The notes below the pieces were generated by a model. It did not search any database. It saw only the letters and a program-made list of their open reading frames with translations, and was not told where the DNA came from. A stretch of DNA of 64,000 nt from an uncultured Verrucomicrobiota bacterium (lineage in GTDB: Bacteria > Verrucomicrobiota > Verrucomicrobiia > CAZIPW01), in assembly GCA_964541905.1 (NCBI GenBank), contig CAZIRU010000001.1, positions 77,490 through 141,489 of the forward strand, read 5' to 3'. Position 1 is the first letter of the stretch. Every line of letters starts with the position of its first letter. Below, piece after piece: positions 102 through 42,200 of the stretch. The position numbers and the translations under genes were made by a program.

Positions 102-149
102 TAGGGCTTGCGCTTTGATTCTTTTTATGGTAAGCTTGTACTTAAGCAA

Positions 150-215
150 ATGAATAGCAGCTTCTATTTCTGGTACTTTACCCCGGCGGTTTCGTCGAGG
201 AAGGGAACCTGTTAG
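150..215 (+). promoter_or_regulatory. Putative leader peptide ORF MNSSFYFWYFTPAVSSRKGTC, aromatic-rich, an attenuation leader for the downstream DAHP synthase.
   Basis: ATG at 150 and TAG at 213-215. Codons 5-10 are F Y F W Y F. It lies 25 nt upstream of a terminator hairpin and directly 5' of the aroG-type gene. Confidence 0.55.
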
Positions 216-240
216 CAGAAGCTCACCTCCTCTTCGGAAC

Positions 241-268
241 CGCAGCCCAAAAGCTGCGGTTTTTTGTT
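241..268 (+). terminator. Intrinsic terminator or attenuator hairpin: CCGCAGC-ccaaaa-GCTGCGG followed by TTTTTT.
   Basis: A perfect 7-bp GC-rich stem, a 6-nt loop and a T6 tract. It ends at the start of the DAHP synthase ORF. Confidence 0.6.
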
Positions 269-294
269 TGCCCAAATTTTCATCTCCCAAATTT

Positions 295-1368
295 ATGAAC
301 ACGCTTAACCTCCAAACCCTCTCTCCTCTTATGACGTCCCATGAACTCCACGCGGCGTTGCCCTTGGGCAATACCGTCGAATCCGTCCGTCGCGGTCGCG
401 AAAGCGTCCGTGCAATCCTCTCCGGCGCCGATCCGCGGCTTTTGGCTGTCGTTGGGCCCTGCTCGGTTCACAACACAAGCGAAGCCCTTGGCTATGCCGA
501 ACGTCTCGCGGGCCTCTCTGAAGAGCTTGGCGATCGGCTACTGCTCACGATGCGCTGCTATTTTGAAAAACCGCGCACGACAATCGGTTGGAAGGGCTTC
601 CTAAATGACCCCCATCTCGATGGCAGCGACGACATCAACAGCGGGCTTTTGGCCTCACGCAAGCTTTTGCTCGGTGTAGCCAAAATGGGTCTGTCGGCGG
701 CGACCGAGTTCCTCGATCCCCTGCTGGCCCCTTACAATGCCGATCTCATTTCCGTGGGCGCAATCGGCGCGCGCACGGTCGAATCGCCACAACACCGCCA
801 GCTTGCCAGCGCGCTTCCGATGCCCGTGGGTTTCAAAAATGGTACTGACGGCTCGGTCAAGACAGCCATTGAGGCCATGATTGCCGCCTCCGCCTCGCAC
901 GCTTTCCCGATGCCGGATGCGCACGGCCGCGCTAGCATTGTCCGTTCGGCGGGCAATGCAGAAACCTTCCTCATCCTTCGTGGAGGCCGCAACGGCCCCA
1001 ACTATTCCGCAGAGGCACTTGCGGCAGCCAGCGCGCAACTGGCGCAACAGGATTTCGCCTCACGCCTGATGGTCGATTGTAGCCACGGCAATTCCGCCAA
1101 AAACCACCTCCGGCAAAAGGACGTTCTACGCGACCTGCTTGGCCAACGCCGCATGGGCAATATCAATGTCGTAGGCGTCATGCTCGAGAGTTACCATTAC
1201 TCCGGCCATCAGCCCTTTGCCCCACGCGAAAGACTTAAACCTGGCCTTTCGATTACCGATGGGTGCCTGGGCTGGGACGAAACTGAGGCGCTTTTGCGTG
1301 AGGCGCATGCTTCGCTTGGTAGCGCCGATGCACGCCGTTGCGCGGAGCCAAGGCTGGTTCTCGTGTAA
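295..1368 (+). CDS. aroG: 3-deoxy-7-phosphoheptulonate (DAHP) synthase, class I (AroG/F/H type).
   Basis: LLAVVGPCSVHN, KPRTTIGWKGF and other class I DAHP synthase motifs. ATG at 295 is preferred over TTG at 268. Stop is TAA. Confidence 0.9.
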   Translation: MNTLNLQTLSPLMTSHELHAALPLGNTVESVRRGRESVRAILSGADPRLLAVVGPCSVHNTSEALGYAERLAGLSEELGDRLLLTMRCYFEKPRTTIGWKGFLNDPHLDGSDDINSGLLASRKLLLGVAKMGLSAATEFLDPLLAPYNADLISVGAIGARTVESPQHRQLASALPMPVGFKNGTDGSVKTAIEAMIAASASHAFPMPDAHGRASIVRSAGNAETFLILRGGRNGPNYSAEALAAASAQLAQQDFASRLMVDCSHGNSAKNHLRQKDVLRDLLGQRRMGNINVVGVMLESYHYSGHQPFAPRERLKPGLSITDGCLGWDETEALLREAHASLGSADARRCAEPRLVLV

Positions 1369-1384
1369 AGCCTCCGCTTATTCC

Positions 1385-1422
1385 CCCCAACGCCAGAAAA
1401 GTGGCGTTGGGGGCGCTTTTTT
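1385..1422 (+). terminator. Rho-independent terminator after aroG: CCCCAACGCC-agaaaagt-GGCGTTGGGG followed by GCGCTTTTTT.
   Basis: A 10-bp perfect stem plus a T-run, 17 nt downstream of the stop. Confidence 0.7.
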
Positions 1423-1500
1423 ATCATTTTTTCCTATCGTTTTCTGCCGTAGTGGTATATGAGTTATTGGATTGAATGACTCAATCCACGAGCTTGGACT

Positions 1501-21241: not shown

Positions 21242-21502
21242 ATGCCAAAGTACGCCATCCATATCGTTCAGATCGGGTCGTTTAAAGCAGGCTCCAACGC
21301 TCTTTACGAGCGGTTGCGACTGCTGACAGCCAAGGCAAGAAAAGCAAAACTAACGCCGCAAGAGCTTCCGTCACAGCCGTCTGCCGGTTTGGGGTTTGCA
21401 GTGGAAACGCCACTTCCGCCGGAGAGGTTATCTAAGATTTTTGAAGGGATTGATGTTTCGATTTCGAAAATAGAAGAGCCGGGCGTAGCGGGAATGAATT
21501 AA
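21242..21502 (+). CDS. Hypothetical small protein, 86 aa.
   Basis: The ORF ends 4 nt before a strong terminator. No homology recognised. Confidence 0.3.
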   Translation: MPKYAIHIVQIGSFKAGSNALYERLRLLTAKARKAKLTPQELPSQPSAGLGFAVETPLPPERLSKIFEGIDVSISKIEEPGVAGMN

Positions 21503-21530
21503 AAAAGCCCCGAGTTTTTCGGGGCTTTAG
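21501..21530. terminator. Bidirectional intrinsic terminator AAAAAA-GCCCCGA-gttt-TCGGGGC-TTT.
   Basis: A 7-bp GC stem flanked by an A-run and a T-run, lying between convergent genes. Confidence 0.65.
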
Positions 21531-21555
21531 TGTTTTAAAAAACTTGTCAGGAGGA

Positions 21556-22284
21556 CTATTTCTTTTCCTCGGCCTTCGCTGGCGCTTTCGCATCTTTCGC
21601 AGGAGCCTTGGCGTCTTTGGCGCCTTCCGCAGCCACAACAGCCCCATCAGCGGGCTTGGCTTCGCCTTCGGCCGCAGCGCCTTCAGCAGCGGCAGTCGGC
21701 TTGGTCTCTTCCTCGACTTCGGGCACATTGCAAGTGATAAGCACCTGATCGGCCTTCTCGTCATAGACGACTCCGGAGAGAGCCTTCAGGTCGCGGACGA
21801 AAATAGCCTCGCCAGCATGGAGATTGGCGACATCCACTTCGACAACCTCGGGTAGATTCTTGGGCAAGCAGCGCACGGCCACCTCGGAATAGACAACTTC
21901 CAAGAGCGCCCCTTCCATCTTGACGCCGATACATTCGCCAACGGTGCGGATAGCCACATGGGCACGCATCTCTTCATTGGCCTTGACCTCGACAAAGTCA
22001 AGGTGCGTGAAGGCGTCCGTAAGACGATCGCGCTGGGCCTCTTGAAGGAGCGAGAGGTTCTTTTGGCCCTTTTCGTCCTCAAGTTCCAGAAGCGCGGAGC
22101 TTCCGCCAAACTGCTTGTAGAGTTTGACGAACGTTTTGCTGTCTATCATGAGTCCGCGGGGTTCCGATTTGCCGTAGATGACGGCCGGAATCTTTCCCTC
22201 ACGGCGCTGCGCGCGTGAAGCGCGGCGACCGGAAGTTTGACGGGACTCTACTTTCAACGAGTATTGTTTCATAGAGACGGTCAT
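21556..22284 (-). CDS. rplY: 50S ribosomal protein L25 / general stress protein Ctc.
   Basis: N-terminal L25 domain (RRASRAQRREGKIPAVIYG) plus a C-terminal Ala/Lys/Glu-rich tail. Confidence 0.85.
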   Translation of the reverse strand: MTVSMKQYSLKVESRQTSGRRASRAQRREGKIPAVIYGKSEPRGLMIDSKTFVKLYKQFGGSSALLELEDEKGQKNLSLLQEAQRDRLTDAFTHLDFVEVKANEEMRAHVAIRTVGECIGVKMEGALLEVVYSEVAVRCLPKNLPEVVEVDVANLHAGEAIFVRDLKALSGVVYDEKADQVLITCNVPEVEEETKPTAAAEGAAAEGEAKPADGAVVAAEGAKDAKAPAKDAKAPAKAEEKK

Positions 22285-23474: not shown

Positions 23475-23504
23475 TAAAAAAGCCCCGAGGCGCTCGGGGC
23501 TTTT
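23475..23504 (-). terminator. Intrinsic terminator downstream of rplI: GCCCCGAG-gcg-CTCGGGGC flanked by an A-run and a T-run.
   Basis: An 8-bp perfect stem. On the minus strand it is followed by TTTTTT. Confidence 0.6.
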
Positions 23505-27900: not shown

Positions 27901-28218
27901 ATGAAGAAGTCTGCGAACGAACATCAACTCTTATGCCGCATTAAGGAGGGTGTGGGGACGCCCTTTCAAAAGGAAGTTTGGTTGGAAATCACTCAAATTC
28001 CTAAAGGAGAGATCATTACATATACAGAACTGGCGCGGCGCATAGGGCGGCCCGGAGCGGCTCGAGCCGTTGCAAACGCCTGTGGCGCAAATCCTTATGC
28101 GCCAGAAGTGCCGTGCCATCGTATTATTCGTAGCGATGGAGCTTTAGGCGGCTATTCCGGCAAGGGCGGAGTTACAAAAAAAGAGCGGCTCCTTCGCACT
28201 GAAAGAGCCGCTCGATAA
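27901..28218 (+). CDS. ogt: Methylated-DNA--protein-cysteine methyltransferase, DNA-binding or catalytic domain (Ogt/MGMT family).
   Basis: Active-site PCHRII and a helix-turn-helix. ATG at 27901. Confidence 0.7.
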   Translation: MKKSANEHQLLCRIKEGVGTPFQKEVWLEITQIPKGEIITYTELARRIGRPGAARAVANACGANPYAPEVPCHRIIRSDGALGGYSGKGGVTKKERLLRTERAAR

Positions 28219-28229
28219 AACTAAAGCCT

Positions 28230-28601
28230 CTAGCGATACTGCATCTCAGTGGTCGCAGCAGCCAAAAGTCCATTCCTCGAGTGTTGATGAACAATAACTT
28301 TCTTAACTTTCAAGGAGGTGAACATTTCAGAGCCGAGATGAATGGCTGTTGATGGCGACTGAGGCTCATCGGAACGCATGCTTTGGGGACGCTCAACCAG
28401 CAGGTCCGGATGTTGCATCAGTTCGGCCATCCCCTGATCCTCGGAAACATTAGCCCCTCGCAAAATGCTCGAAAGCCTTTGCGCCATATTTTCATGCACG
28501 CGCGAAGTTTGTTTTGCCTCACGGATCCTTCTAAGGGTCTTTGAGCGGCGTGAGCTTTCGGGAGAAATTCTCCCAATTTGATTTTTAAGAGTTTGCGTCA
28601 T
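28230..28601 (-). CDS. Hypothetical protein, 123 aa.
   Basis: ORF downstream of the GT8-like gene. No motif recognised. Confidence 0.35.
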   Translation of the reverse strand: MTQTLKNQIGRISPESSRRSKTLRRIREAKQTSRVHENMAQRLSSILRGANVSEDQGMAELMQHPDLLVERPQSMRSDEPQSPSTAIHLGSEMFTSLKVKKVIVHQHSRNGLLAAATTEMQYR

Positions 28602-28681
28602 ACGAGTTATCAGTACACTATGCGCCTAATTAATCAAGTAAAAATTTCATAAAAATGTAAATTTTCGTGGTTCAGGGGGGC

Positions 28682-29596
28682 TTAGGCTCTATGGTAAAAC
28701 CTTCCAATCGCCGAAGCTATTGACAATGAAAGCCTTAAAAACATCAAGCGAATCGGACAAATCGAGCGCAAGGGGCCGGAAGTGTAAGCAAAAAAGCTCT
28801 TTTGGGCCATTGTAGGTCGTTTTCCCTGAAGTGCTTGTAGAATAAAACGGCCCCTCCATGGCTTATCAGGGCCTATGGCATGTGAAAGCAAATACCCCCC
28901 AGGCGCAAAATCCATTCCCTCGGGCCCGCAGGTATTTAAGGCAAAATCCGCGCAAATGAGCGCCATATTGAGTGCATCTTGATCGGTGGAGCAGAAGAGC
29001 TCCCAAGCGTGCCCGATTTTTAAGTCCGTATGTTTTTGGGAAAGCAAAATGATCTTCTCCCACAGCTCAATAAGAGGTTGCTGCTCTGGGCCCAGCCCGA
29101 TAAATCCGCCGGAATAATAGCGATCCATCGGCCGAAGGCCCTCGGCTAAATGATGCTGCGTTAGCCAATCCTGCCAAAGGAGCCTCAAAGGATGACGGGG
29201 CGGGAAATAACTGTTTACATCTTCACAGAGCGCCACGCCCCCGCGCGCCCATCTTTCGAGCAACTCCCAAGGGCATTTTACAACAATATCGGGATCGAAA
29301 TAAAAAATTTGCTCCGGGTGGTAACGCTCCAAAAGAGCCTTCAAAAAAGTCGGTTTGTAGGTTGTAAAATGCATGGAGATTTTGAGCTCTTCAAAACAGA
29401 GCTCGAGCCCCTCCGCGACAGAAAGCCGCCAAAGGCCATCCGGCGTACCTACCGCATCCTTTGCAAAGGGCGGCAAGGGCCCTCTAAACCCACAATGCAC
29501 AACCCCGCGAAAGCCTCCCGCATAAATGGAATTCACAAGCGCGGCAACCCCATGATAGTGGTCTTTTTCAAAAAGCGTGCAAACAAGCGATGGCAT
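28682..29596 (-). CDS. Nucleotide-diphospho-sugar transferase, probably glycosyltransferase family 8-like.
   Basis: FDPDIVV (DxD) and DQDALN motifs reminiscent of GT8. Family call is uncertain. Confidence 0.55.
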   Translation of the reverse strand: MPSLVCTLFEKDHYHGVAALVNSIYAGGFRGVVHCGFRGPLPPFAKDAVGTPDGLWRLSVAEGLELCFEELKISMHFTTYKPTFLKALLERYHPEQIFYFDPDIVVKCPWELLERWARGGVALCEDVNSYFPPRHPLRLLWQDWLTQHHLAEGLRPMDRYYSGGFIGLGPEQQPLIELWEKIILLSQKHTDLKIGHAWELFCSTDQDALNMALICADFALNTCGPEGMDFAPGGYLLSHAIGPDKPWRGRFILQALQGKRPTMAQKSFFAYTSGPLRSICPIRLMFLRLSLSIASAIGRFYHRA

Positions 29597-29639
29597 GTAA
29601 AATTAAAGACTGAATTTAGGCCTTTGCGGCATGTAAAAT

Positions 29640-30557
29640 TTGATATATAGGTTGGGGGTGAGCGTACCGCATATCAGCATTTGTTTGCCAGCCTATAAAG
29701 CACAGCAGTATATTGGAGCGACTCTGGATTCGATTGCAAGTCAGACCTTTCAAGATTGGGAATTAATCGTGGTAGAAGACGGCTCTCAAGATTCAACAGA
29801 AGAAATTTTGCGCACCTGGGCCAAAAACATCACCCAGTCGATTACCTTCCACCGGCACGAGTGCAACAAGGGATTATCCGCCGCCCGCAACACGGCTATT
29901 TCTTTGGCAAAATCGAATTTCATTGCATTGATTGACGCTGATGACCTTTGGCTTCCTGCGCACTTGGCCAGCCTGGTAAAGATTCAGAATACTACAAATT
30001 GCGATTGGGCCTTTGGAGGTGTATCGCTTTTTGATAGCGATAGCGGCACGCATCTGTATGACCGCACGCCGCCAATTTGCACGGGGAAGGAAATCCCTTT
30101 AAAACTTTTCAATTGCACCTATAATATCCAGCCCTCGGCCACTCTTTTACGAAAATGCTGCGTCGAGGCCGTGGGCGGCTTTGATGCCTCTTTGCGAAGC
30201 GTGGAGGATTTGGATATGTGGATTAAATTATTTAGGCGAGGATATAAACTTGCATACTCAGGCGCAGTTACTTGTCGCTACCGACAACACGCCCAAGCAA
30301 TGACGCGCAACGCCATAGCTATCGCTGAAGCCTTGGCCTTGGTGCAAGAACGCAACTTGGACTGGGAGGGCATCCCCCTAAATGCATCAAAGAAAGAGAC
30401 GGCAAAGACAAGACTGGCGGCCGCACGCATGTTATTAAGAAACGACCCCTCCCGCGCCCTTCTTCATATGCAAAAAGCATTATATTTTAGACCCATTTGG
30501 CCCCGTTTGTGGATCTACATGTGCGTTGCACAATTTTTAAAATTGCTTAAGCGCTAA
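29640..30557 (+). CDS. Glycosyltransferase family 2.
   Basis: ISICLPAYK..., VVEDGSQD (DxD) and a GT-A fold order. Confidence 0.8.
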   Translation: MIYRLGVSVPHISICLPAYKAQQYIGATLDSIASQTFQDWELIVVEDGSQDSTEEILRTWAKNITQSITFHRHECNKGLSAARNTAISLAKSNFIALIDADDLWLPAHLASLVKIQNTTNCDWAFGGVSLFDSDSGTHLYDRTPPICTGKEIPLKLFNCTYNIQPSATLLRKCCVEAVGGFDASLRSVEDLDMWIKLFRRGYKLAYSGAVTCRYRQHAQAMTRNAIAIAEALALVQERNLDWEGIPLNASKKETAKTRLAAARMLLRNDPSRALLHMQKALYFRPIWPRLWIYMCVAQFLKLLKR

Positions 30558-30609
30558 CGCGCTTGGGAGTTGATGAAAAATCAAAAAAACGGTATATTAG
30601 GGGTTTCCC

Positions 30610-31992
30610 ATGAACCGCGTATACATCAAAACGTATGGGTGTCAGATGAACGAGCGCGATAGCGAAGCGGTTGAGGCGGCCTTGCGCGCAAAAGGGTATA
30701 GTTTTGTTGAAAACGAGACCGAAGCTGACATTATACTCATAAATACTTGCTCGGTTAGAGACTTAGCAGAGCAAAAAGCCCTCGGCAAAGCTGGAAGGCT
30801 GCAGAAGCTCAAGCGGATGAAGCCGCAGCTTATTTTGGGAATTATGGGTTGCATGGCCCAAAATCGGGGGGCTGAGCTGCTTGCGCGGCTGCCGGATTTG
30901 GATTTGGTCGTGGGAACGCAAAAACTGCACCGCGTGCCCGAATTTATCGAAAAAGCCATTAAAACAAAAGAAGGGCTCGGGCCAAGACAGGCGAATTTGC
31001 CCAAAAGCGAGCGGAGGGGGCTTGGTTTTGTGGAGATCGGAGAGGAAGCTGGTTCGCAAAATGAGCTACGCGATCATCCCAAGTCCTTTTCAGTCAGCGC
31101 TTTCATCAGTATCCAGCAGGGCTGCGATATGCGCTGTGCCTATTGTATTGTGCCCAAAACACGCGGCGATGAACGCAGTAGGCCTATTAAAGATATCGTG
31201 CAAGAGGTGCGCGAATTAGTCGCAAATGGAACGAAGGAGGTTGTTCTACTGGGACAAATTGTCACAAGCTATGGAAGAAAGTTGGAAAGCTTCTCTGGAG
31301 GCAAGAGCCCATTTGTAAAATTGCTTGAAGAACTCAATGATATTGAGGGGCTTGCGCGAATTCGGTTTACCTCTCCGCATCCGCGCGGTTTTAAAGATGA
31401 CCTCATCGGGTGTTTTGGGAGATTGGAAAAACTATGCGAGCAAGTACATTTGCCGCTGCAAAGCGGAAGCGACCGGATTCTGCGGCTAATGAATCGGCCG
31501 TATGGACGGGAGCGATATTGGGAAATTGTACGCGCATTGAAGGAAAAAGGTGTGGCTCTAAGTACGGATATCATCGTCGGGTTTCCGGGAGAAACGGAAG
31601 ACGACTTTGAACAAACGCGGGAGCTTTTTGAGCGGGTAGGGTTTGACATGGCGTATATTTTTAAATACTCCAAGCGCAGCGGTACGGTAGCGGCAGAAAT
31701 GCAGGAACAGGTCGCAGAGGAGGTGATGGAGCGGCGCAATCAGGTTTTGCTCGAGATTTTGGAGAAAAGCTCGCGGCGGCAGGGCCAAAAGCTGGTCGGA
31801 ACCACGCAAGAGGTTTTGGTTGAAGGATTTGCGAAAAGAGGCGGACGGCTCGTGGGTAAAACGCGCGGCGGCAGAAAGGTGGTTTTTGATGGGGAAGAAA
31901 AGCTAATTGGGAGGCTTGTTAAAATCGAAATTCAAAACTCAAGCGTGGCGGCACTAGAGGGGCAGGTGGATTTTGGTTTGCCCGCACGGTAG
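30610..31992 (+). CDS. miaB: tRNA-2-methylthio-N6-dimethylallyladenosine synthase MiaB.
   Basis: YIKTYGCQMNERDSE, radical-SAM CAYCIVP and a TRAM C-terminus. Confidence 0.9.
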   Translation: MNRVYIKTYGCQMNERDSEAVEAALRAKGYSFVENETEADIILINTCSVRDLAEQKALGKAGRLQKLKRMKPQLILGIMGCMAQNRGAELLARLPDLDLVVGTQKLHRVPEFIEKAIKTKEGLGPRQANLPKSERRGLGFVEIGEEAGSQNELRDHPKSFSVSAFISIQQGCDMRCAYCIVPKTRGDERSRPIKDIVQEVRELVANGTKEVVLLGQIVTSYGRKLESFSGGKSPFVKLLEELNDIEGLARIRFTSPHPRGFKDDLIGCFGRLEKLCEQVHLPLQSGSDRILRLMNRPYGRERYWEIVRALKEKGVALSTDIIVGFPGETEDDFEQTRELFERVGFDMAYIFKYSKRSGTVAAEMQEQVAEEVMERRNQVLLEILEKSSRRQGQKLVGTTQEVLVEGFAKRGGRLVGKTRGGRKVVFDGEEKLIGRLVKIEIQNSSVAALEGQVDFGLPAR

Positions 31993-32012
31993 CGCTGAAG
32001 TAACCTTGAGGG

Positions 32013-32687
32013 ATGTTTTATCCGCCTCCGCAGAAGACCATGCCATTAGGCGTTGATGAATGTGGCAAGTTTGCTTCTGACTACGGCGTGATGTCGCACC
32101 TTGCGTGCGCAGCGCAAGGAACCTCGGGTTTACCCGTGGGGCTCCATTTAACGATAGCGACGCTTGTTTTGGCGGTTATTTTCCTGCTTAAAGGCGCGTT
32201 TCTTTTGTGGGGAAGTGAGGCTTCGCACAAGCGCGCGATGGCCCTTTTGTATAACCGAGGGGCTAGCATAACACTATGGGCAGTAGCCGTTGCGTGGGTA
32301 CTATGGGAAACGCTTAAGCTGGGGCCGGCCGATTTTGGCGACCTAAAATGGCCGCTTTTTACACTCTTCGCAGCGCTCGGGATTTCCAGCATCTGGATGC
32401 TCAAAGATTATCTGATCGTGCGCGCAGGATGCGTCTTGTGGCTGCTTTTGGCGTGGAGGTTCCTCAAGGCGGCCTTTTTGAGGCCGGAAGGCTCGCGGCT
32501 TTTGATGGTAGGGGTGGTTTATCTGCTGATTGTGGCGGCGCTTTATCTGGCTGTGGCCCCGTGGCGCGCACGCGATATTTTGGAGGCCCTCGCGCCCGGG
32601 AAAAAGCTTAGGGGTGTCGTCGGAAAAATCGTTTTTGGCGTGGGCGCCCTGCTGATGCTCGCCGCGGCAACGTATCGCTGGGCGTAG
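32013..32687 (+). CDS. Hypothetical integral membrane protein.
   Basis: At least five predicted hydrophobic helices. The start is uncertain. Confidence 0.45.
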   Translation: MFYPPPQKTMPLGVDECGKFASDYGVMSHLACAAQGTSGLPVGLHLTIATLVLAVIFLLKGAFLLWGSEASHKRAMALLYNRGASITLWAVAVAWVLWETLKLGPADFGDLKWPLFTLFAALGISSIWMLKDYLIVRAGCVLWLLLAWRFLKAAFLRPEGSRLLMVGVVYLLIVAALYLAVAPWRARDILEALAPGKKLRGVVGKIVFGVGALLMLAAATYRWA

Positions 32688-32727
32688 AAGGATAGACTTT
32701 TGGGGCCAGAGTGCCGTAAGAAGAGGC

Positions 32728-33318
32728 ATGGAAGAAAATCAGGTGTGGCTGCTTTTGAGCGGGCCCAGCGGAGTGGGAAAAAGCACGCTCATTGACCAGA
32801 TGGTGGGGTTTTTCAAACCCGCGTTGGAGGCCGTCGTCACCACAACCACTCGCGCGCTCCGCGAAGGCGAACGCGAAGGGGCCCCCTATTATTTTCTGAG
32901 CGCGGAGGAATTTGAAAAGCGAAAGGAGCAGGGCGCCTTTGTGGAGACAACGCAACGTCACGGCATCGGCTATGGAACTCTAAAGGAGGAAATCGAGTCG
33001 CGGCTTTTGAGTGGGCGCGACCTGATCATGCAGGTGGATTTTTTCGGCATGAAAGAATTTAAAAAGCTGCGCGAGCGCTGGGGCAAAATCAGAATCGCAA
33101 GCATATTCCTAAAACCGCAAAGTCTGGATGCGCTCCGAGAACGCTTGCAGCGCCGAGGCCGCAACAGCCCGGAAGAAGTGGCCGCGCGCTTGAAAATAGC
33201 CGAGGAAGATTTGTCGCACGCGGGAGCTTACGATTATTGCTTTGAAAGCGGCACTTACGAGCAAGACTTTCAACGAATGCGCGGAATTTACTTGGCCGAA
33301 AAAGCGCGGGTAATGTGA
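32728..33318 (+). CDS. gmk: Guanylate kinase.
   Basis: LLLSGPSGVGKSTL P-loop, with the overall Gmk length and motifs. Confidence 0.9.
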   Translation: MEENQVWLLLSGPSGVGKSTLIDQMVGFFKPALEAVVTTTTRALREGEREGAPYYFLSAEEFEKRKEQGAFVETTQRHGIGYGTLKEEIESRLLSGRDLIMQVDFFGMKEFKKLRERWGKIRIASIFLKPQSLDALRERLQRRGRNSPEEVAARLKIAEEDLSHAGAYDYCFESGTYEQDFQRMRGIYLAEKARVM

Positions 33319-33372
33319 GGAGCCGAGAACGAAGGCTTGTCTTGCGGCGCGAAAAAGCCGTAAGAAAAATGT

Positions 33373-34173
33373 ATGCTGCATGACCCCAAAAAGCTGCTTC
33401 TGGTGGCTGGCCCTTCGCTTTTGGAAAACAAGCTTGCGGTCTTTAAAGTGGCAGAGGCCCTCAAAGCTCTTTCGCAAAAACATGCGGAAAGCTTGACGGT
33501 CGTTTTTCGCAGCTCATTTGACAAACCCCACCGCGGCACGCTCTTTAGCGCGAGGGGAAGCGGCCTCGAAGAAGGGCTGCGGCTGCTGACGGAAGTCAAA
33601 GATCAACTGGAGCTAAAAATCTCGACGGATGTACACGAGCGGCAACAGATTGAGCCCGCCTCGCTTGTGTGCGACGTACTGCAGATCCCTTCGCTTTTGT
33701 GCCGGCAAAATGACCTGATCACCGACGCGGCCAAAAGCGGATGCGTGGTCAATCTGCGCAAAGGCGTGGCGCTCTCGCCGATTGACGCTCTGCAGCTCGC
33801 CGAAAAAGTCGAGTGTGCGCACGCAACCGAATTTTGGATGACCGAACGCGGAAGTGCGTTTGGCTATAACCAACTAATGTGTGATATGCGGATCTTTACC
33901 GCGCTCAAACATACGGATTGTCCGGTCCTCTTTGATGCTTCGATCACAACCGAGTTGCCCGAAGGCGTGGCCCAGCGGCTAAAAAACAGCGCTCGGGCCT
34001 TTTCCCTGCCGCTGGCAAAGGCGGCGTTGGCGGCCGGAGCTGCAGGGCTTTATTTGGATGTGCATCCCGAGCCGGAAAACGCTTTGGTCGATAATGCAAC
34101 ACAGCTGCCTCTTAAGGAGCTGGACGGGTTTGTCGCACAGGCGCTGGAGCTTTGGCAAAAATTGCACGCCTAG
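33373..34173 (+). CDS. kdsA: 3-deoxy-8-phosphooctulonate (Kdo-8-P) synthase.
   Basis: LLVAGPSLLENK... and the (beta/alpha)8 KDO8PS signature. 266 aa. Confidence 0.9.
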   Translation: MLHDPKKLLLVAGPSLLENKLAVFKVAEALKALSQKHAESLTVVFRSSFDKPHRGTLFSARGSGLEEGLRLLTEVKDQLELKISTDVHERQQIEPASLVCDVLQIPSLLCRQNDLITDAAKSGCVVNLRKGVALSPIDALQLAEKVECAHATEFWMTERGSAFGYNQLMCDMRIFTALKHTDCPVLFDASITTELPEGVAQRLKNSARAFSLPLAKAALAAGAAGLYLDVHPEPENALVDNATQLPLKELDGFVAQALELWQKLHA

Positions 34174-35309
34174 GAAGGTTGGGTCGGCTTCTGCAACGTA
34201 TCAAAAAGGAGAGCCTCAAGGCGTTCGGCCACCGTTGCTGGCTGGAAGCGCTTTTCATAACTCGGACGGGCAGCCGCACGCAAATCGGAGAGCGCGGAAG
34301 GCGAAAGGGCCGCAAAACGCTCGAACAGCTCCCGCGTACCTTTGAGGGTGTCGGCGGCTACGAGCGCGCAACCGTCGGCAGCAACGTCGCGAGCGAGCGC
34401 AACCTTATCGGAGAGCAAAACGGGGGTCCCCATCGAAAGTGCCTCGGCCACGACCATGCCAAAATTTTCTTGGTGCGAGGGTAAAATCAAAGCCTGAGCC
34501 GCAGCAAGCGCGCCCCACTTGACAGGGCCTTCCAAAAGCCCCGTCCAAACGACCTTTTTGGAAGCGGCGAGATGGCGCAAGCGGGTGTAATAAAAGGTGC
34601 ACTCCGGAGGCCCTGCCATAACGAGAGCCGTTGAGGGAGGAAGCGCCCTGAGGAGCAGATGTGGGGCTTTTTTGGGATGAAAACGCGAAAGATAGAGGAA
34701 GAAGGGCGTTTGCGCGAGGGAAGGGAAGGCTGCATAAAAAGCCTCGCGGGCCTCGGCGGCTGAAACGGGAGAGCTGCGCAGGCCAAGGCCGACGATCAGC
34801 TGGCGGCGTGGCGCAAAGAAAGGGAAGGTGTGCTGGCTGGACTCGAGCTCTGCGGTTGTGGTGTAGAGGAGCGCGGCGGCGTGATTGAGGGTGTGGCGTT
34901 CAAAGAGCAGATAGTAGGCGAGCTTTTTAAGATATTTGAGGGGAAATCGATTGAAATAGCCATCCAGCATGCCATGAGGAAAAAGAAAGTAGGGGATTTG
35001 CCCGCGCAGCGCCCAGCGCGCAAAAGGAGCGGTCGAAAAAAGCCAAAGGCCATTCAAAAAAAGAGCATCTGGCCGCGGAAGGGCGGCCAGTTTGCCATCA
35101 AGGTCGGGGACAAAACCGTGCAAATTTTTGGGCGGACCGAAGGCATGAATTTTGACAAACGGAGGCGCTTCGGCTGGAGGCGCCCCATCGAGGGTAATCA
35201 AATCAACCGCATGGCCGCGTTCGGCAAGCGCTGACGCAAGTTCAAGCGTAGCGGAAGCAACCCCGCCACTTGAGGCATTTAACGTATGTACGACGAAGCT
35301 TAAACGCAT
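34170..35309 (-). CDS. Glycosyltransferase family 1 (GT4-type).
   Basis: The C-terminal GT-B EX7E-like region (ENFGMVVAEALSMGTPVLLS). Confidence 0.8.
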   Translation of the reverse strand: MRLSFVVHTLNASSGGVASATLELASALAERGHAVDLITLDGAPPAEAPPFVKIHAFGPPKNLHGFVPDLDGKLAALPRPDALFLNGLWLFSTAPFARWALRGQIPYFLFPHGMLDGYFNRFPLKYLKKLAYYLLFERHTLNHAAALLYTTTAELESSQHTFPFFAPRRQLIVGLGLRSSPVSAAEAREAFYAAFPSLAQTPFFLYLSRFHPKKAPHLLLRALPPSTALVMAGPPECTFYYTRLRHLAASKKVVWTGLLEGPVKWGALAAAQALILPSHQENFGMVVAEALSMGTPVLLSDKVALARDVAADGCALVAADTLKGTRELFERFAALSPSALSDLRAAARPSYEKRFQPATVAERLEALLFDTLQKPTQPS

Positions 35310-36538
35310 GATTCAAGTGCATTAAGAAGGCTCTCGCGGAAAGCCTCGGGCGTAAAACCTTTAGCAAGAGCCAAACCCTTGGCAATTAGTGCAGCGCGCT
35401 CTTCGAGTGAAGCGTTGAGATAGGCAAGGAGCTTGGGGGCGTTGGCTTGCGCCCAAGTCTCAATTTCGTCTGGGCGGGGCGTCTCGAGGATAACGGAGGC
35501 GCCCGTGGCAAAGCAGGTTTTTAGCGAGGAGTTGTCGGTAATAATAAGGGGCGTGGCGCACGCAAGCGCTTCCAGCGCCGGCCAGCCAAAACCCTCATTG
35601 AAGGAAAGAAGCAGGAAGGCTTCTGCCCCGCAATAAAGTGCCTGCATCTCCGCGTTGGAAACATCTGGAAAAGAATAAACCTCAACGCCACCCTTTTGGG
35701 CAATCGCAAGCTCGCTCGCGTCCATCGCAGTCCCCGCAAAAACAAGAGCCGGTGGAGTCGGGGTTAATTTTTTCAATTCTGCGCACAAATGAACGATCCC
35801 TTCGCGGTTTTTGTACCAAGCCGAAGAACCCATGTAGAGTAAATACGCCCGAGGAAGGACGCCCTTTTTGCGCCAGAGCGCTTCCTGTCGAAGACGCAGC
35901 TCCTCCGGCGGCAGGGGCGCGTAAGGGTAGTTTAGGCAAAGAGGAGCCACGCTAACGCGCGAAGCAAGCTGGGGCAAAAAACGCTTGGCATCAGCGGCTG
36001 TCGCTTCGGAAGGACACACGGCACAAGCGCAATTTCGCAGGCCGGAAAGATTCATCTGCTGGGAAAAACGTTGGCCAAAAGTGCTTTTGGGAAGACCGGC
36101 AAAATCATCCAGCGTCACGCGAAGCGCCGTGAGGTCGCTGATAAACGAACAAACACGGAAACCCGTCAAGGCGGTAGCCAAAAATCCGAGAGACTGATCG
36201 CTTAAGAAAACCACAAAATGGCGTTTTTCCTTTTGCGCTTTCTTGCGCAAAGACGAAAGCTTGATGCGCAAAATAAGCGAAGAAAAAAAGAGCCTCTCGA
36301 AGAGCGCCACCGCACGATGAATTTGGGGAACGCCGAGGGTTAAGTCCCCTAAAAAACTTGGGGGCGTCACGTTTATCACCTCGACGGGAGCTCCCGAGCG
36401 GCCACGGGAAAGCTCTTCGGCCATCAGGGAACACAGCAGCCTAATGCTGCGGAAAGGCTGGTACTCAAAAGGCTCAATCAAGGCGACCGTAAGCGACTTC
36501 ATCGGGTAAAGCATAAACACACGCACAAAATTTTCCAA
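35300..36538 (-). CDS. Glycosyltransferase family 1.
   Basis: GT-B layout with NEGFGWPALEALACATPLIIT. Confidence 0.75.
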   Translation of the reverse strand: MENFVRVFMLYPMKSLTVALIEPFEYQPFRSIRLLCSLMAEELSRGRSGAPVEVINVTPPSFLGDLTLGVPQIHRAVALFERLFFSSLILRIKLSSLRKKAQKEKRHFVVFLSDQSLGFLATALTGFRVCSFISDLTALRVTLDDFAGLPKSTFGQRFSQQMNLSGLRNCACAVCPSEATAADAKRFLPQLASRVSVAPLCLNYPYAPLPPEELRLRQEALWRKKGVLPRAYLLYMGSSAWYKNREGIVHLCAELKKLTPTPPALVFAGTAMDASELAIAQKGGVEVYSFPDVSNAEMQALYCGAEAFLLLSFNEGFGWPALEALACATPLIITDNSSLKTCFATGASVILETPRPDEIETWAQANAPKLLAYLNASLEERAALIAKGLALAKGFTPEAFRESLLNALESCV

Positions 36539-36560
36539 GCTTGGACTGGCGGCCGGAATA

Positions 36561-37877
36561 TTAAAGGGAGCGCATCAATGCACGGAAGAGCGGATGGTCC
36601 TGATAGGCCGGACGCGTTGCCGCCAAAATAAAGCCAGCCCCCAACGAAGCAAAGCCTAAAATCGTCGGCTGACCCCAGCCTCCGCTAAAAACCCACGGCA
36701 GAATTGCGGCGCAAAGAAGCCACGGCGTGGCATTGCCCTGCTGTTTAAGCGCTCGATAGCTCCAATAGAGCAAATAAAAACACAAGGCCACCCGAAGGCC
36801 AATTAGCGCCACCCCCAAAATGAGCCCGCTCTCGCGCAAAAGACGAGTCCACTCCACTTCGCCAAGCGCAAAAACACGCTGGCCCACAAGCAAAGAGGTT
36901 CCCACATTCGTGCCGGCTCCCGTGCCGGCTCCCGTGAAAGAAACGTCGCTAAGAATCCTAAATGGCTCCATCAGCTCGCTATAAATACGCTCGGCAATCC
37001 CCATCGTCGGAGTTCCCATCGTGTCGGCCTCGTCAAAGCGCGCCGCCATCAGCGAGCTTCCCCACTGGAAAAGCGGCGTCAGGCTGGCCAAAAGGCCCAA
37101 CAGCACCACGCTGGAAATAAAAAGAAGACCGCGCTTGACCCGTGAGGGATTGAGAAAGAAAACCAAAACTGCTCCCGCAAGGACTAGAAGGCAGGCAACG
37201 ACGGAACTGCGGCTCAAGGAACATGCCAACGCGAAAAGAAGCGCTATGAATGAAAGAGTGCGGAGAAAACGTGAGCTCTTTTCAAAAAACGCCGAGGCGA
37301 TAAAGGCACACTGAAGCGAAAGGAAAGCTGTTGCGCCAATCACAAAAGAAAACGTGGCCGCCGGACGCACGTGATCGAGGCTGGCTTGCATCTGCGTGTA
37401 AGTGCCACCCACGGCAATATTGAGAATATGCCGCGCGGGCAACATAAACTGCAAAATAATAAGAGCCGCCATCGGCAACGATACCCATAAAAGCGCCTTG
37501 CCAAAAGCGCGCACATCGTCCTGCGAGAAAATTCGAGGGATGATAAAAATAAGCGGCAGATGGAGAAAATTGGCGCGCAACCCGAAGAGCGCCACTAGAA
37601 GATTGCCGTGTCCCCACAAAAGCGCGGAAATAAAAAGCAGCACCGCAAGAATGGCCGAATAGCCGATAAATCCATTTAAAGGGAACTGTCGCCGCGAAGC
37701 CGCCAAAAGGTAAATCAAAAGGACAACCGGATCGCGTATTAGCAGGAGAGGGTTTGAATAGCCCGGCAAAAACCATTTGCGTAAAGCCCCCTCAAACAAG
37801 AGCAGCCAAAAGTAGAGCCAAACCAAACGGCGGGCCCAGAGAATTTCCGGATTGCGGCGAAGAGCGTCAGTTTCCAT
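36561..37877 (-). CDS. O-antigen ligase/polymerase family membrane protein (WaaL/Wzy-like).
   Basis: About 11 TM helices with a large periplasmic loop, as in the O-antigen ligase family. Confidence 0.65.
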   Translation of the reverse strand: METDALRRNPEILWARRLVWLYFWLLLFEGALRKWFLPGYSNPLLLIRDPVVLLIYLLAASRRQFPLNGFIGYSAILAVLLFISALLWGHGNLLVALFGLRANFLHLPLIFIIPRIFSQDDVRAFGKALLWVSLPMAALIILQFMLPARHILNIAVGGTYTQMQASLDHVRPAATFSFVIGATAFLSLQCAFIASAFFEKSSRFLRTLSFIALLFALACSLSRSSVVACLLVLAGAVLVFFLNPSRVKRGLLFISSVVLLGLLASLTPLFQWGSSLMAARFDEADTMGTPTMGIAERIYSELMEPFRILSDVSFTGAGTGAGTNVGTSLLVGQRVFALGEVEWTRLLRESGLILGVALIGLRVALCFYLLYWSYRALKQQGNATPWLLCAAILPWVFSGGWGQPTILGFASLGAGFILAATRPAYQDHPLFRALMRSL

Positions 37878-39051
37878 GTCGGGTAAGCTCTTTTATAAGC
37901 GTTTGCTCATAAACTTGCCAGCTTAACTGTTGCGCGCGCTGATAGGCGGCTTCTTGCATGGCCGCAAGCGCCGTACGGTTTTTGATCATCCAGGTGAGTT
38001 TTTCGGTGATGGCCACCGAAGAGCGAATGGGAACAATAAAGCCCTCATGCCCATCGGTAATAAAATCGGGCGCTGCCGTGTTCGCCGTGGTAATGACGGG
38101 CAACCCGCAACTGAGAGCCTCCGTCAAAACGAGCCCAAAACCTTCGAACAACGAGGGAAAGATCAGAACGTCGTGGCGGCGCATCTGCTCGAGGATTTCG
38201 GAGTGTGGGAGGCTGGCTTTATGCGTGTGCGCTGCAATGGCCTTCTCGAGGGCACCGCAGTGCGAAACGGGGGGGCGCCCAATTACGGTCAGCGTCAAGT
38301 GATTGTGCAGCGAAACAACGGCGTCGAAAAGATAGCTCAAGCCTTTGCGCTGCGTAAGCGCTCCCACGTAGAGAACCTTCAACTTTCCAGAGGTATGCCG
38401 GCGCTCCAGAGGTCCCGGCGGTGGCGCGCCATAGGGGATAACCGAAAGGGTTTGCTTAGGCGAAATGAGTCCGGCAAGCGTATGGGCCGTAAAAGACGAG
38501 GGGACAAAGATGCGGTCGGCCATCGCCAGCTCAACGTCTTTGCGGACCAGTTTCTTTTCGGAATCGCGCAAGCCTGTAAGTGTGGGCGCCCACGCAGGAT
38601 TGAGGAGCGCCTCATCACGAAAAAGCTGCTGGGCGGCCTTGTGATGGCCGATGGGCAGCTCGTAGAAAGTTTGCAAAGACAGCTTTTTGGCGGCGAGAAA
38701 GGTCTGGGAGGCCCCATCTTCGTAGCAATATACCCCCTTGAGTTTCCCGTCGCGAGCCAAGCTGGGCAAATCGCGCGCCAACGCCGCATCCAACCGGCGG
38801 TACACCTCGTCTATGGAAGGCCCCACCTTGCCAGGCAGCAAGAGCCTCATCAGCTCGCCCAAAGGATGGGGGCAGATTTTTGAATAGGAGATGGGATAGC
38901 TGCGGCGTGCCGGAAGCGTTCCGAAAAGATTACCCAGCCAACGAGGCCAAGCCAGCGTCGTGTAAAAACTTTGCAGAAGCCCAGCTGCGTCAAGCGCCGC
39001 AAGCGCATGGCGCACGTTGGGATTGCCGGTAGGGTGAGAAAGAATCAGCAT
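37867..39051 (-). CDS. Glycosyltransferase family 1 (GT4).
   Basis: FEGFGLVLTEALSCGLPVITT is the EX7E motif. Confidence 0.8.
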   Translation of the reverse strand: MLILSHPTGNPNVRHALAALDAAGLLQSFYTTLAWPRWLGNLFGTLPARRSYPISYSKICPHPLGELMRLLLPGKVGPSIDEVYRRLDAALARDLPSLARDGKLKGVYCYEDGASQTFLAAKKLSLQTFYELPIGHHKAAQQLFRDEALLNPAWAPTLTGLRDSEKKLVRKDVELAMADRIFVPSSFTAHTLAGLISPKQTLSVIPYGAPPPGPLERRHTSGKLKVLYVGALTQRKGLSYLFDAVVSLHNHLTLTVIGRPPVSHCGALEKAIAAHTHKASLPHSEILEQMRRHDVLIFPSLFEGFGLVLTEALSCGLPVITTANTAAPDFITDGHEGFIVPIRSSVAITEKLTWMIKNRTALAAMQEAAYQRAQQLSWQVYEQTLIKELTRHGN

Positions 39052-39070
39052 GAGAGAAAATTATAGCGGT

Positions 39071-40159
39071 TTATTTTATTTGCGAGCGAGAAGCTTCGAG
39101 ATCTTTCATAAAAGAACGTGCAATCTCTGGCAACAGCATGGGCGACGGCATAGCAATGGTTTCTTGAAGCAACGCGGGGGTTAGTTCTCGAAAAACACCT
39201 TGCGGAAGGGGTTCCTTCTTCGATATGCCGTCGTCCGAGAGCAGAAGAACAGGCAAGCCGTGCTCGCGCGCAGCGGCAATAGCCCCGCTTTTTTGCCAAA
39301 ATGCCGGAGAATAGCCGGAAAGAAAAATATCCAGAGAAGAAAGATAGTAGGAAGCTTCGCGCATCGACATGAAGCCCAACTGTTCCACCTGCAACCGCCC
39401 GCGATACTTCTGAGCAAGCCTCTGCCAACGCACGACAGCTGCATTGGAAAGAGAGCCCCCGGAAAGCAGCGTCAGCTCAAGACCTGTTTGGGACTGTATC
39501 TTTGCACAACTTTCAAAGAAAGGCTCCAGCGGCGTTGCGGCCGAAATGGAGCCAAAAAAGCCCAAGCGGCGGTGATTTCCGCGCACAGGTTTTCGCGAGA
39601 CTGACTCGACAGGAATATTGCCGAACAGCGGAAGCAGTCGGGGGGCAAAACCCTCGATTTTGAGAGTCTCGGCATAAAAAGGAAGCGCCACATGCAAACA
39701 ACAAGGCTTGAGCGCGCGGAAAAGCGAAAGAATAAGGCGCTTTTGCAAGAGCGGCCCCAAAATGCGATATTTGAGTGGTTCTCCACGCCGATTAAACACC
39801 CATAGCTCGTGCGCAAAAATATGAACGGGGGCCAACTGTACAAGGCCGCGAAGTTCCTGCTGAAGGGAAAAGGGGAAGCCTCGCGCTTCAAAGGCAAAAG
39901 GCACAAACTGGAGCGAAATGAAATCGGGTGCAAACCCCGAAAGAAAGTGGCGCAAATGCGCGCGCTTGGCGCTTAGGGGAAGGTGGCGAGGCAACCGCAG
40001 AGAATCCTCGGAGAAAACAGGTGCCCCCGAGCGCTCCGAAAGAGAAATAAAACGAGACTCTACGCCCATGGGCTTAAGCGCCTCGGCCAACCGCAATGTA
40101 TAATCCGCAACACCGTCATGCTCGCGCGAAAGAGACCCTGTTATAAAGAGAATATTCAT
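39071..40159 (-). CDS. Glycosyltransferase (GT-B type).
   Basis: N-terminal MNILFITGS... and the C-terminal LPVLLLSDDG region. The start overlaps the wzt stop. Confidence 0.55.
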   Translation of the reverse strand: MNILFITGSLSREHDGVADYTLRLAEALKPMGVESRFISLSERSGAPVFSEDSLRLPRHLPLSAKRAHLRHFLSGFAPDFISLQFVPFAFEARGFPFSLQQELRGLVQLAPVHIFAHELWVFNRRGEPLKYRILGPLLQKRLILSLFRALKPCCLHVALPFYAETLKIEGFAPRLLPLFGNIPVESVSRKPVRGNHRRLGFFGSISAATPLEPFFESCAKIQSQTGLELTLLSGGSLSNAAVVRWQRLAQKYRGRLQVEQLGFMSMREASYYLSSLDIFLSGYSPAFWQKSGAIAAAREHGLPVLLLSDDGISKKEPLPQGVFRELTPALLQETIAMPSPMLLPEIARSFMKDLEASRSQIK

Positions 40160-41394: not shown

Positions 41395-42200
41395 ATTTCA
41401 TCCGCCATGGAGGTTTCGGAGCGCAGAAAAAGAGCGACTCCAAGAAAAAAGAACAAAGTGGAAATAACCATGCACCAGAGCAATGCCTGCAGCGGAAAAA
41501 CCATTTCCGGCAAAACCGCCCAGCGCATCCCCTCAATAACGCCTACCAATGGATTGAGCATAAAGACCGCGCGGAAAGCCTCCGGCACAACCGCCATCGC
41601 ATAACCAACCGGAGTAATAAACATTCCAAACTGAACCGCAAACGGCAGCAAAAATCGCAAGTCGCGGTAGCGCACCAAGAGCGCTGCCACTACTAGCATC
41701 GGCCCCAAAGTCGCATATGCGCCTAGCAAAACCCAAATCGGCAAGGTAAAAAGGCGAAAACCCCATGCGCCCCCGGCCAAGGGAATAGCCGCCAAAAGCA
41801 AAAGTAAATTGAGCGCCAAGTCAACAAAGGCCACCCATAGACTTGAGATGGGGATAATCATTCGGGGAAAATACAATTTTGTCACCAAAGGAATATTCCC
41901 CAGCAAACTTGTGCCGCCCGTTTGCAGACCAAATGTAAAAAGCTGCCAAGGGATCATCGCCGCATAAACCGAAAGGAAACTCGAACCCTCCAACCCCGCC
42001 ACACGACCAAAAACAAAGGAAAGGGCCCCCACGGTCAAAAGGGGCACCAGAAATGCCCACAACACCCCTGCAACGGTCTGTTTGTAGCGCACCGACAGAT
42101 CGCGCCCAGCCAGAAAGTAGAGCAGCTCGCCATACGCGCGCAGGTCCGCCAAATAACGCGGCAAAGAAAGACGGGGGGTGATAACGGTCACACGTTGCAT
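41391..42200 (-). CDS. wzm: ABC-2 type polysaccharide exporter permease (Wzm).
   Basis: Six TM helices. It is 4-bp translationally coupled to wzt. Confidence 0.8.
   Translation of the reverse strand: MQRVTVITPRLSLPRYLADLRAYGELLYFLAGRDLSVRYKQTVAGVLWAFLVPLLTVGALSFVFGRVAGLEGSSFLSVYAAMIPWQLFTFGLQTGGTSLLGNIPLVTKLYFPRMIIPISSLWVAFVDLALNLLLLLAAIPLAGGAWGFRLFTLPIWVLLGAYATLGPMLVVAALLVRYRDLRFLLPFAVQFGMFITPVGYAMAVVPEAFRAVFMLNPLVGVIEGMRWAVLPEMVFPLQALLWCMVISTLFFFLGVALFLRSETSMADEI

Follow-up and report, generated by a model that had tools for sequence, protein, structure and literature searches.

Among described leader-peptide systems, the closest to the element considered here is aroR of Corynebacterium glutamicum, a leader with the residues Phe-Tyr-Phe that was predicted from RNA-seq data upstream of aroF, the gene of 3-deoxy-7-phosphoheptulonate synthase (DAHP synthase) (Mentz et al. 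2013; PMC4046766). According to a 2025 review, which relates the work of Neshat et al. 2014, stalling at the Phe and Tyr codons of aroR raises transcription of the operon under Phe, but not under Tyr, limitation (PMC11802643). Strain engineers routinely delete aroR (PMC7356990), and for Escherichia coli aroF an attenuation dependent on Tyr-tRNA is an old proposal, cited in PMC2659441. In a 64-kb stretch of bacterial DNA (contig CAZIRU010000001.1; "the window" hereafter denotes this whole stretch) we have identified, directly upstream of a DAHP synthase gene, a leader open reading frame (ORF) with six consecutive aromatic codons, an intrinsic terminator and a predicted antiterminator. We read this region (positions 108-294), with good confidence, as a ribosome-mediated leader-peptide transcription attenuator of a unit that has the DAHP synthase gene as its single gene; the element is real and, judged from its sequence, probably functional.

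Like C. glutamicum aroR, the leader of the window is short, mixes aromatic codons and immediately precedes a DAHP synthase gene, in a phylum outside the proteobacteria; stalling is reported to raise downstream transcription in the former, and the same is proposed for the latter. The likeness lies in the published function. C. glutamicum belongs to the Actinobacteria and its leader carries Phe-Tyr-Phe, whereas the window is Verrucomicrobiota-like with a run of six codons that includes Trp; moreover, aroF heads an operon, whereas the DAHP synthase gene of the window stands alone. The preliminary description of the locus, whose author knew of no such leader outside the proteobacteria, thus overstated its novelty, as aroR had already been published. 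With the pheL-pheA and trpL-trpEDCBA attenuators of E. coli (Yanofsky model; PMC11802643) the element shares end-product codons in the leader, mutually exclusive hairpins and a decision taken by the position of the ribosome. Those attenuators control terminal-branch operons and sense one amino acid each, whereas the element of the window stands before the entry enzyme of the pathway and encodes three aromatic residues. Mixtures of several end-product codons are found in the enterobacterial leaders of ilvGMEDA (Ile/Leu/Val codons) and thr (Thr/Ile codons), where, as proposed for the present leader, shortage of any one encoded end product can relieve termination, although pathways and phyla differ. 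The mechanism class itself is classical (trpL, pheL), and the element would extend known DAHP synthase attenuation to the Verrucomicrobiota.

Three features of the attenuator class were found computationally at this locus: a leader ORF with end-product codons, a terminator before the gene and a suitably placed, mutually exclusive antiterminator. The leader ORF consists of 21 codons and a stop, and its codons 5-10 encode Phe-Tyr-Phe-Trp-Tyr-Phe, exactly as described beforehand; the regulated enzyme catalyses the entry step of the pathway whose three end products these codons encode. An in-frame TTG at 108 would extend the leader to 35 residues. The hexapeptide FYFWYF is the only segment with six aromatic codons out of six among the 127,966 six-codon segments in the six frames of the 64 kb, against an expectation of about 0.05 from the overall frequency of aromatic codons. 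First-order Markov simulations of the 190-nucleotide (nt) intergenic region gave a run of this kind in 0.45% of trials; this control is deliberately conservative, being trained on the T-rich intergenic dinucleotides with the signal itself included, and the figure leaves unrequired the in-frame ATG four codons upstream, the stop codon, the terminator 22 nt further on and the aromatic-pathway gene. A scan of the whole window for short ATG-initiated ORFs with codon runs and a terminator returned no other credible candidate, the rest being Arg/Ser-rich intragenic frames, and no other amino-acid biosynthesis operon was found among the annotated genes of the window.

The GC hairpin followed by T6 that had been noticed in front of the DAHP synthase gene is perfect in its core, CCGCAGC (240-246)/GCTGCGG (253-259), extends to AACCGCAGC (238-246)/GCUGCGGUU (253-261) and runs directly into the U6 at 260-265. 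The distance from the leader stop, given as about 25 nt, is corrected to 22 nt. A terminator scan places the hairpin at 236-263. Folded alone, it reaches -16.9 kcal/mol, a stability that no dinucleotide shuffle out of 200 attained (z = -4.39).

The mutually exclusive antiterminator, which the preliminary description had proposed to look for by folding, was found at 186-243. Its outer helix pairs 186-194 (GCGGUUUCG) with 235-243 (CGGAACCGC). In 183-246 the minimum-energy and centroid folds coincide in this structure (-27.9 kcal/mol, z = -2.83; 3 of 200 shuffles did as well), and it is also the minimum-energy fold of 150-246, that is, of the RNA as it stands before the 3' arm of the terminator exists. 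Since 8 nt (236-243), most of the 5' arm of the terminator, are used by both structures, the two are mutually exclusive. The 5' strand of the antiterminator starts 7 nt past the last aromatic codon and the leader stop UAG (213-215) lies within its apical loop, so that a ribosome reaching the stop codon would prevent the antiterminator. In folds of 180-266, the terminated state, in which the terminator is accompanied by the small hairpin at 184-197 and by a re-registered one at 200-235, has -32.9 kcal/mol versus -31.0 kcal/mol for the antiterminated state. The energies being nearly equal, the choice between them would be kinetic, as a switch requires.

In the proposed mechanism, transcription would begin just 5' of the leader, or continue from the upstream gene (OAD_beta, see below), and a ribosome would translate the 21 codons of the leader, coupled to an RNA polymerase engaged in transcribing 186-265. 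With Phe-, Tyr- and Trp-tRNAs charged, the ribosome would reach the UAG at 213-215 and cover roughly 198-227; the antiterminator would be blocked, the terminator at 237-262 with its U-run would form and transcription would stop some 30 nt short of the DAHP synthase start. If any aromatic aminoacyl-tRNA became scarce, the ribosome would stall within 162-179, best at codons 5-8, and stay 5' of 186; the antiterminator would then sequester 236-243 and the polymerase would continue into the DAHP synthase gene. The codon content suggests that the sensing would be multivalent, and the physiological response would be a higher expression of the entry enzyme under aromatic starvation. We modelled the ribosome as a 30-nt footprint imposed as an unpaired constraint on folding. 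A footprint on the leader stop codon yields a minimum-energy fold with the terminator, and one on Trp codon 8 a minimum-energy fold with the antiterminator.

The same layout recurs at DAHP synthase genes elsewhere. Our comparison set comprised 166 DAHP synthase loci from genomes and metagenomes and 16 obtained by exact protein look-up, the upstream regions of which were scanned for aromatic-rich short ORFs followed by terminators. Five Planctomycetota lineages share the layout (L149, L175, L177, L179 and L181), L149 being assigned to this phylum by the organism name on its protein record. The leader of L149 has a TTG start, a good Shine-Dalgarno sequence and the product (M)ATGRTFYFWYFSYPWWSPGLRDTA; its FYFWYF is the hexapeptide of the window with three synonymous differences (TTT TAC TTT TGG TAC TTT), and its DAHP synthase is 48% identical to that of the window. 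The four retrieved relatives of L149 (L175/176, L177/178, L179/180 and L181/182), with DAHP synthases 71-80% identical to that of L149, all carry the module. The leaders of the family follow the consensus (F/Y)Y(F/C/A)(W/R)YFSYPW..PG..TA before the stop codon, with TTG or GTG starts, Shine-Dalgarno sequences and a TTGAC-17-TAnnCT promoter. The differences in their aromatic block are synonymous, Phe/Tyr exchanges or losses of Trp, which argues for selection on codon identity. The 1:2 hairpin CCCUGG/CCAGGG is invariant, and neither its stem nor that of the terminator, AAGCCCUGAGA/UCUCAGGGCUU followed by U5-6, ever varies. In the antiterminator, CCAGGGCU pairs with the 5' arm of the terminator and the stop codon is enclosed (-28.2 kcal/mol, z = -4.07); 90% of cells are paired, versus 21-43% with a slid partner, and double changes occur at two pairs. 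No description of this family was found in the literature; its loci themselves were not searched against Rfam.

A covariance model (R1) was built from the five Planctomycetota leaders. Its best match in the 64 kb is the window's own element at 144-265 (18.1 bits, E about 0.002, with a rough E-value calibration), and in this alignment the aromatic runs coincide, as do the terminators, with 184-197 in the place of the 1:2 hairpin. However, a generic terminator at 21501-21636 on the minus strand scores 17.4 bits. Because a plain gene-end terminator scores nearly as high, common descent is not demonstrated, and it is equally possible that the same design, and even the same hexapeptide, arose by convergence. 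According to a rough estimate, a given hexapeptide of these residues would be expected by chance about 4e-5 times in the approximately 74,000 codon positions scanned upstream of the other loci.

A second group, in the Dehalococcoidia, comprises the best matches of the genome collection to the DAHP synthase of the window, at about 50% identity (L001, L002, L005, L006, L008, L014 and L019). Their module contains a TTGACTT...TAGTAT promoter, a Tyr/Phe-rich leader of 27-29 codons, e.g. MKITWDGCGYCCYFFTGCQPVGEGLVC, and a terminator, ACCCCAGCCGGCAnAGGyTGGGGTTTTT, which is conserved with covariation. In L004 and L079 (2880-3000 in both), the promoter is kept and exactly the leader and terminator are gone; the loss corresponds to a deletion of about 200 nt between the repeats ACCTGGG and ACCCGGG and represents a natural attenuator-deletion allele. 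The stop-codon hairpin of the Dehalococcoidia, UUGGUGU/ACACCAA, a candidate antiterminator, is 86% paired but is not supported by covariation, as it showed no double changes in a MAFFT alignment, in which the two divergent members are misaligned there. The literature gave no description of these leaders either. Window, Planctomycetota and Dehalococcoidia have in common the gene context, an aromatic-rich leader and a stop codon in a hairpin that competes with the terminator, whereas their stems are unrelated in sequence, and the DAHP synthases of the two groups are only 44-51% identical to that of the window. The Planctomycetota leaders, unlike that of the window, possess a clear invariant 1:2 hairpin, a TTG or GTG start and a Shine-Dalgarno sequence. 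Taken with the placement of the antiterminator, the same architecture at these loci favours the ribosome-mediated attenuation that had at first been proposed from the window alone. The features are collected in Table 1.

Table 1. Features of the candidate attenuator locus and of the related leader modules (positions refer to the window unless a locus is named).
Feature	Coordinates	Strand	Description
Upstream gene, OAD_beta	1-104 (stop codon 102-104); L081:2-715	+	Na+-transporting oxaloacetate (or methylmalonyl-CoA) decarboxylase beta subunit
Possible promoter	108..136	+	found by eye; -35 TTGCGC 108-113, 17-nt spacer, -10 TAAGCT 131-136 preceded by TGG
Leader ORF	150..215	+	21 codons and stop; ATG 150, TAG 213-215; product MNSSFYFWYFTPAVSSRKGTC
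Regulatory codon run	162..179	+	codons 5-10, TTC TAT TTC TGG TAC TTT = Phe-Tyr-Phe-Trp-Tyr-Phe
Small hairpin	184..197	+	CGGCG-GUUU-CGUCG, -4.7 kcal/mol; competes with the antiterminator 5' strand
Antiterminator (predicted)	186..243	+	helices 186-194:235-243 (9 bp), 197-201:228-232, 203-206:223-227, 209-211:216-218
Intrinsic terminator	237..265	+	stem 237-246/253-262, loop CCAAAA, U-run 260-265, then GUUUG
DAHP synthase gene	295..1368	+	class I (AroF/G/H-type) 3-deoxy-7-phosphoheptulonate synthase, 357 aa
Terminator after DAHP synthase	1384..1423 (1384-1413 as second strong terminator)	+	from scan; 12-bp stem CCCCCAACGCCA/TGGCGTTGGGGG, then CGCTTTTTT; strong; closes the regulated unit
Planctomycetota attenuator family	L149:1250-1476, L175:990-1200, L177:165-375, L179:985-1200, L181:960-1200		upstream of DAHP synthase
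Dehalococcoidia leader module	L001:2690-2880, L002:2700-2890		upstream of DAHP synthase

A pair of terminator and antiterminator would by itself suit any attenuator, including one in which the leader RNA senses a ligand or a protein (a riboswitch, a T-box or a TRAP/PyrR-like protein) and the ORF is irrelevant. Of the alternatives considered, this is the one to which we give the least credence. A cmscan search of 1-1600 with E up to 10 found no Rfam leader family, only noise matches to unrelated models of small nucleolar RNAs and small RNAs (sRNAs), and two tRNAs were the only Rfam matches at gathering score in the whole window. Furthermore, the leader shows neither a T-box specifier or T-box architecture nor a regular (G/U)AG repeat array, and the sensing of a ligand or protein explains neither the aromatic run nor the aromatic codon identity kept in the Planctomycetota family.

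It could also be argued that the leader ORF acts mainly on translation, through re-initiation, remodelling of the 5' untranslated region (UTR) or mRNA stability, and that the hairpin is a structural or stability element. In fact, C. glutamicum aroR was called a "translational regulatory leader peptide" in an engineering paper (PMC7356990), leader genes have been proposed to boost downstream translation via re-initiation (PMC4833913), and in a genome seemingly without Shine-Dalgarno sequences non-canonical initiation is in play. Yet 79 nt separate the leader stop at 215 from the ATG at 295, against the 10-16 nt linked with re-initiation (PMC4833913). With its GC-rich stem of 10 bp and U6 immediately behind it, the hairpin has the canonical form of an intrinsic terminator; it is specifically this stem that the alternative fold competes with, and the DAHP synthase start region (280-300) is free in every predicted state. 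We consequently regard a mainly translational role as very improbable, and attenuation of transcription as the better reading of the leader.

Several results weigh against the attenuator as we have described it. With the footprint at codons 5-7, the terminated state has a slight advantage at equilibrium, so that the model then needs co-transcriptional kinetics; the antiterminator is complete before the 3' arm of the terminator is transcribed. At codons 9-10 (174-179) the footprint covers part of 186-191 and the minimum-energy fold is the terminator. The leader folds hold no strong 1:2 anti-antiterminator, the sole candidate being the hairpin 184-197 at -4.7 kcal/mol, which is possibly a weak anti-antiterminator or a pause hairpin. 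Because the strong 1:2 hairpin is missing, RNA without translation is predicted to read through, in contrast to the E. coli pheL and trpL leaders, in which this hairpin is strong and untranslated RNA terminates; termination would depend on a ribosome physically covering the upper antiterminator. The 1:2 hairpin is typical of the E. coli attenuators, not essential to the leader-peptide attenuator class.

The signals for expression of the leader belong to the same side of the balance. A consensus sigma-70 scan found no promoter upstream of the leader; it missed the possible promoter at 108-136 (TTGCGC-17-TAAGCT) because the -10 hexamer fits TATAAT at 3 of 6 positions only. A transcript from this candidate would reach the leader ATG after a 5' UTR of only about 5-8 nt, and the same -10 hexamer, TAAGCT, 17 nt past TTGACA, also precedes the L149 leader. 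Read-through from the OAD_beta gene is a possible alternative source of the transcript, since the scan found no terminator between 104 and 237. The leader has no Shine-Dalgarno sequence, and neither have the DAHP synthase gene and ten other genes of the window, in a check that included the gene starts at 295, 1501, 3460, 9083, 16290, 17830, 20042, 30610 and 33373. As other genes of the window lack one too, its absence is not evidence against translation of the leader, and the organism, to judge by these starts, appears to use an initiation that is independent of Shine-Dalgarno sequences.

Comparison with the nearest relatives adds the last of these points. The only other DNA copy of the locus lies on a 3.3-kb contig of Logan run SRR8925774 (L081); over 2,650 nt the two are 100% identical, and for this reason neither conservation nor covariation is demonstrable for the hairpins of the window. 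No relative of the DAHP synthase above 55% identity was found outside its own cluster among 5.8 billion proteins, and scans of genomes and metagenomes with this protein returned nothing above about 54%. Most of the nearest homologues, at 50-55% identity, are without a leader: the upstream regions of P0003, P0005, P0036, P0008, P0074 and P0025, the last four being proteins of Verrucomicrobiae or other Verrucomicrobiota, showed no aromatic ORF and no terminator. In several leaderless homologues the DAHP synthase gene lies 25 nt behind a HAD-like gene. The distribution of the leader is thus patchy, as the closest protein relatives are without it. As for the source of the window, its TypA has best named relatives at 64-66% identity in Opitutaceae and other Verrucomicrobiota and metagenomic relatives up to 78%, from which the DNA belongs to a sparsely sampled, probably Opitutae-like lineage of Verrucomicrobiota.

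Part of this evidence would suit another explanation, in which the hairpin and U-run are the constitutive terminator of an oxaloacetate decarboxylase operon, the ORF and antiterminator are coincidental, and the DAHP synthase gene is served by an unregulated promoter of its own at 266-294 or by leaky read-through. The OAD_beta gene, which has the same orientation, ends at 104 and is followed by no other terminator before 237, no consensus promoter was found 5' of the leader, and a plain gene-end terminator of the window scores nearly as high against R1 as the leader does. However, the terminator lies 133 nt past the upstream stop, which is unusually far, and the 29 nt from the U-run to ATG 295 offer too little room for another promoter with its 5' UTR. 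Nor would coincidence easily place the only 6/6 aromatic run of the window between an in-frame ATG and stop ahead of the entry enzyme of the aromatic pathway, add a significantly stable antiterminator whose apical loop contains the stop codon, and repeat the identical hexapeptide and layout at an independent DAHP synthase locus. Moreover, the two roles are compatible, as a regulated terminator can also end an upstream operon, and the leader terminator may do so for OAD_beta. We therefore consider a purely constitutive terminator unlikely, and retain the attenuator as the preferred interpretation.

The product of the regulated gene matches PF00793 (E = 2e-70) and the NCBIfam model PRK12755 (448.6 bits, cutoff 343), and TIGR00034 (aroFGH) matches too; it falls under the cutoffs of both isozyme-specific models, AroH and AroG. 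Of the two starts that had been suggested, 268 and 295, the ATG at 295 is most likely and the TTG at 268 unlikely, because alignments of homologues begin at residues 1-4 of the protein read from ATG 295, and this start was also chosen in an independent gene call; one database annotation begins at 331. Downstream, the second terminator is followed by a CoA transferase gene (1501-2988), and on these grounds the DAHP synthase gene appears to be the sole gene of the regulated unit. OAD_beta was identified with the help of extra 5' sequence from L081, and its stop codon, previously placed at 101, is at 102-104.

We put forward a wider interpretation tentatively, as one that may well prove too broad. 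The FYFWYF leader would be a multivalent sensor in which shortage of any of Phe, Tyr or Trp derepresses what is possibly the sole DAHP synthase; it would work without the classical 1:2 hairpin, the ribosome being the only anti-antiterminator. It would also belong to an unrecognised, widespread set of DAHP synthase attenuators in Verrucomicrobiota, Planctomycetota and Dehalococcoidia, derived from an old element of the PVC superphylum or from repeated convergence. We found no leader-peptide attenuators described for Verrucomicrobia, Planctomycetes or Chloroflexi in the literature, of which the 2010 comparative survey by Lopatovskaya et al. was not covered. If functional, the element would be, as far as this literature shows, the first leader-peptide attenuator recognised in the Verrucomicrobiota, where regulation is almost unstudied. 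Control of the entry enzyme of the shikimate pathway by charged tRNA would then not be confined to Corynebacterium, the same solution appearing in at least three further phyla. Such elements lie outside Rfam, by a search that covered the element of the window, and are therefore missed by genome annotation. From such leaders one could predict, for uncultured bacteria, the DAHP synthase isozymes that are responsive to aromatic supply; they could also serve as portable and compact sensors of starvation for aromatic amino acids. The element of the window leaves the understanding of attenuation as such unchanged.

Other DAHP synthase loci of the comparison set gave more varied pictures. An AT-rich metagenomic contig (L133:1235-1450) carries the ORF MNNKCFTFFYAYFYFWCFKHTN upstream of DAHP synthase, followed by a long hairpin (z = -4.19) with a perfect 15-bp stem, ACCGCAAUUAGAUUU/AAAUCUAAUUGCGGU, which may be an attenuator of a different design. 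In a metagenome-assembled genome of the Opitutaceae (L063:2720-2850), a terminator-like hairpin, GGCGGATCGC...GCGATCCGCC with T5, lies about 150 nt upstream of DAHP synthase, and the short ORF before it, MLHQVAATTNTFSPSEILG, has no aromatic run. The "FFFDF" ORFs of Geobacter and Geomonas (L035:2870-2960; L096, L097 and L118 at about 1370-1450) were rejected as leaders, as they coincide with a T9 tract fused to a TTGAC...TAGATT promoter and are not followed by a terminator; the conserved tract, which in one frame reads "FFFD" and so imitates a Phe leader peptide, is probably UP-element-like. The Prochlorococcus "LIEFFIWFF" and the enterobacterial matches of a first crude scan were likewise rejected, having no start-codon or terminator support.

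Elsewhere in the window, strong terminator-like hairpins are present at 21501-21636 (minus strand) and at 23479-23503 (both strands), with 13-17 bits against R1. The latter, a match in either orientation, is possibly a bidirectional terminator shared by convergent or adjacent genes. Finally, a shift in composition is seen at 28000-40000, where the GC skew becomes positive and the AT skew rises to +0.26 at 36-40 kb; it coincides with a long block of minus-strand ORFs (34170-42200).

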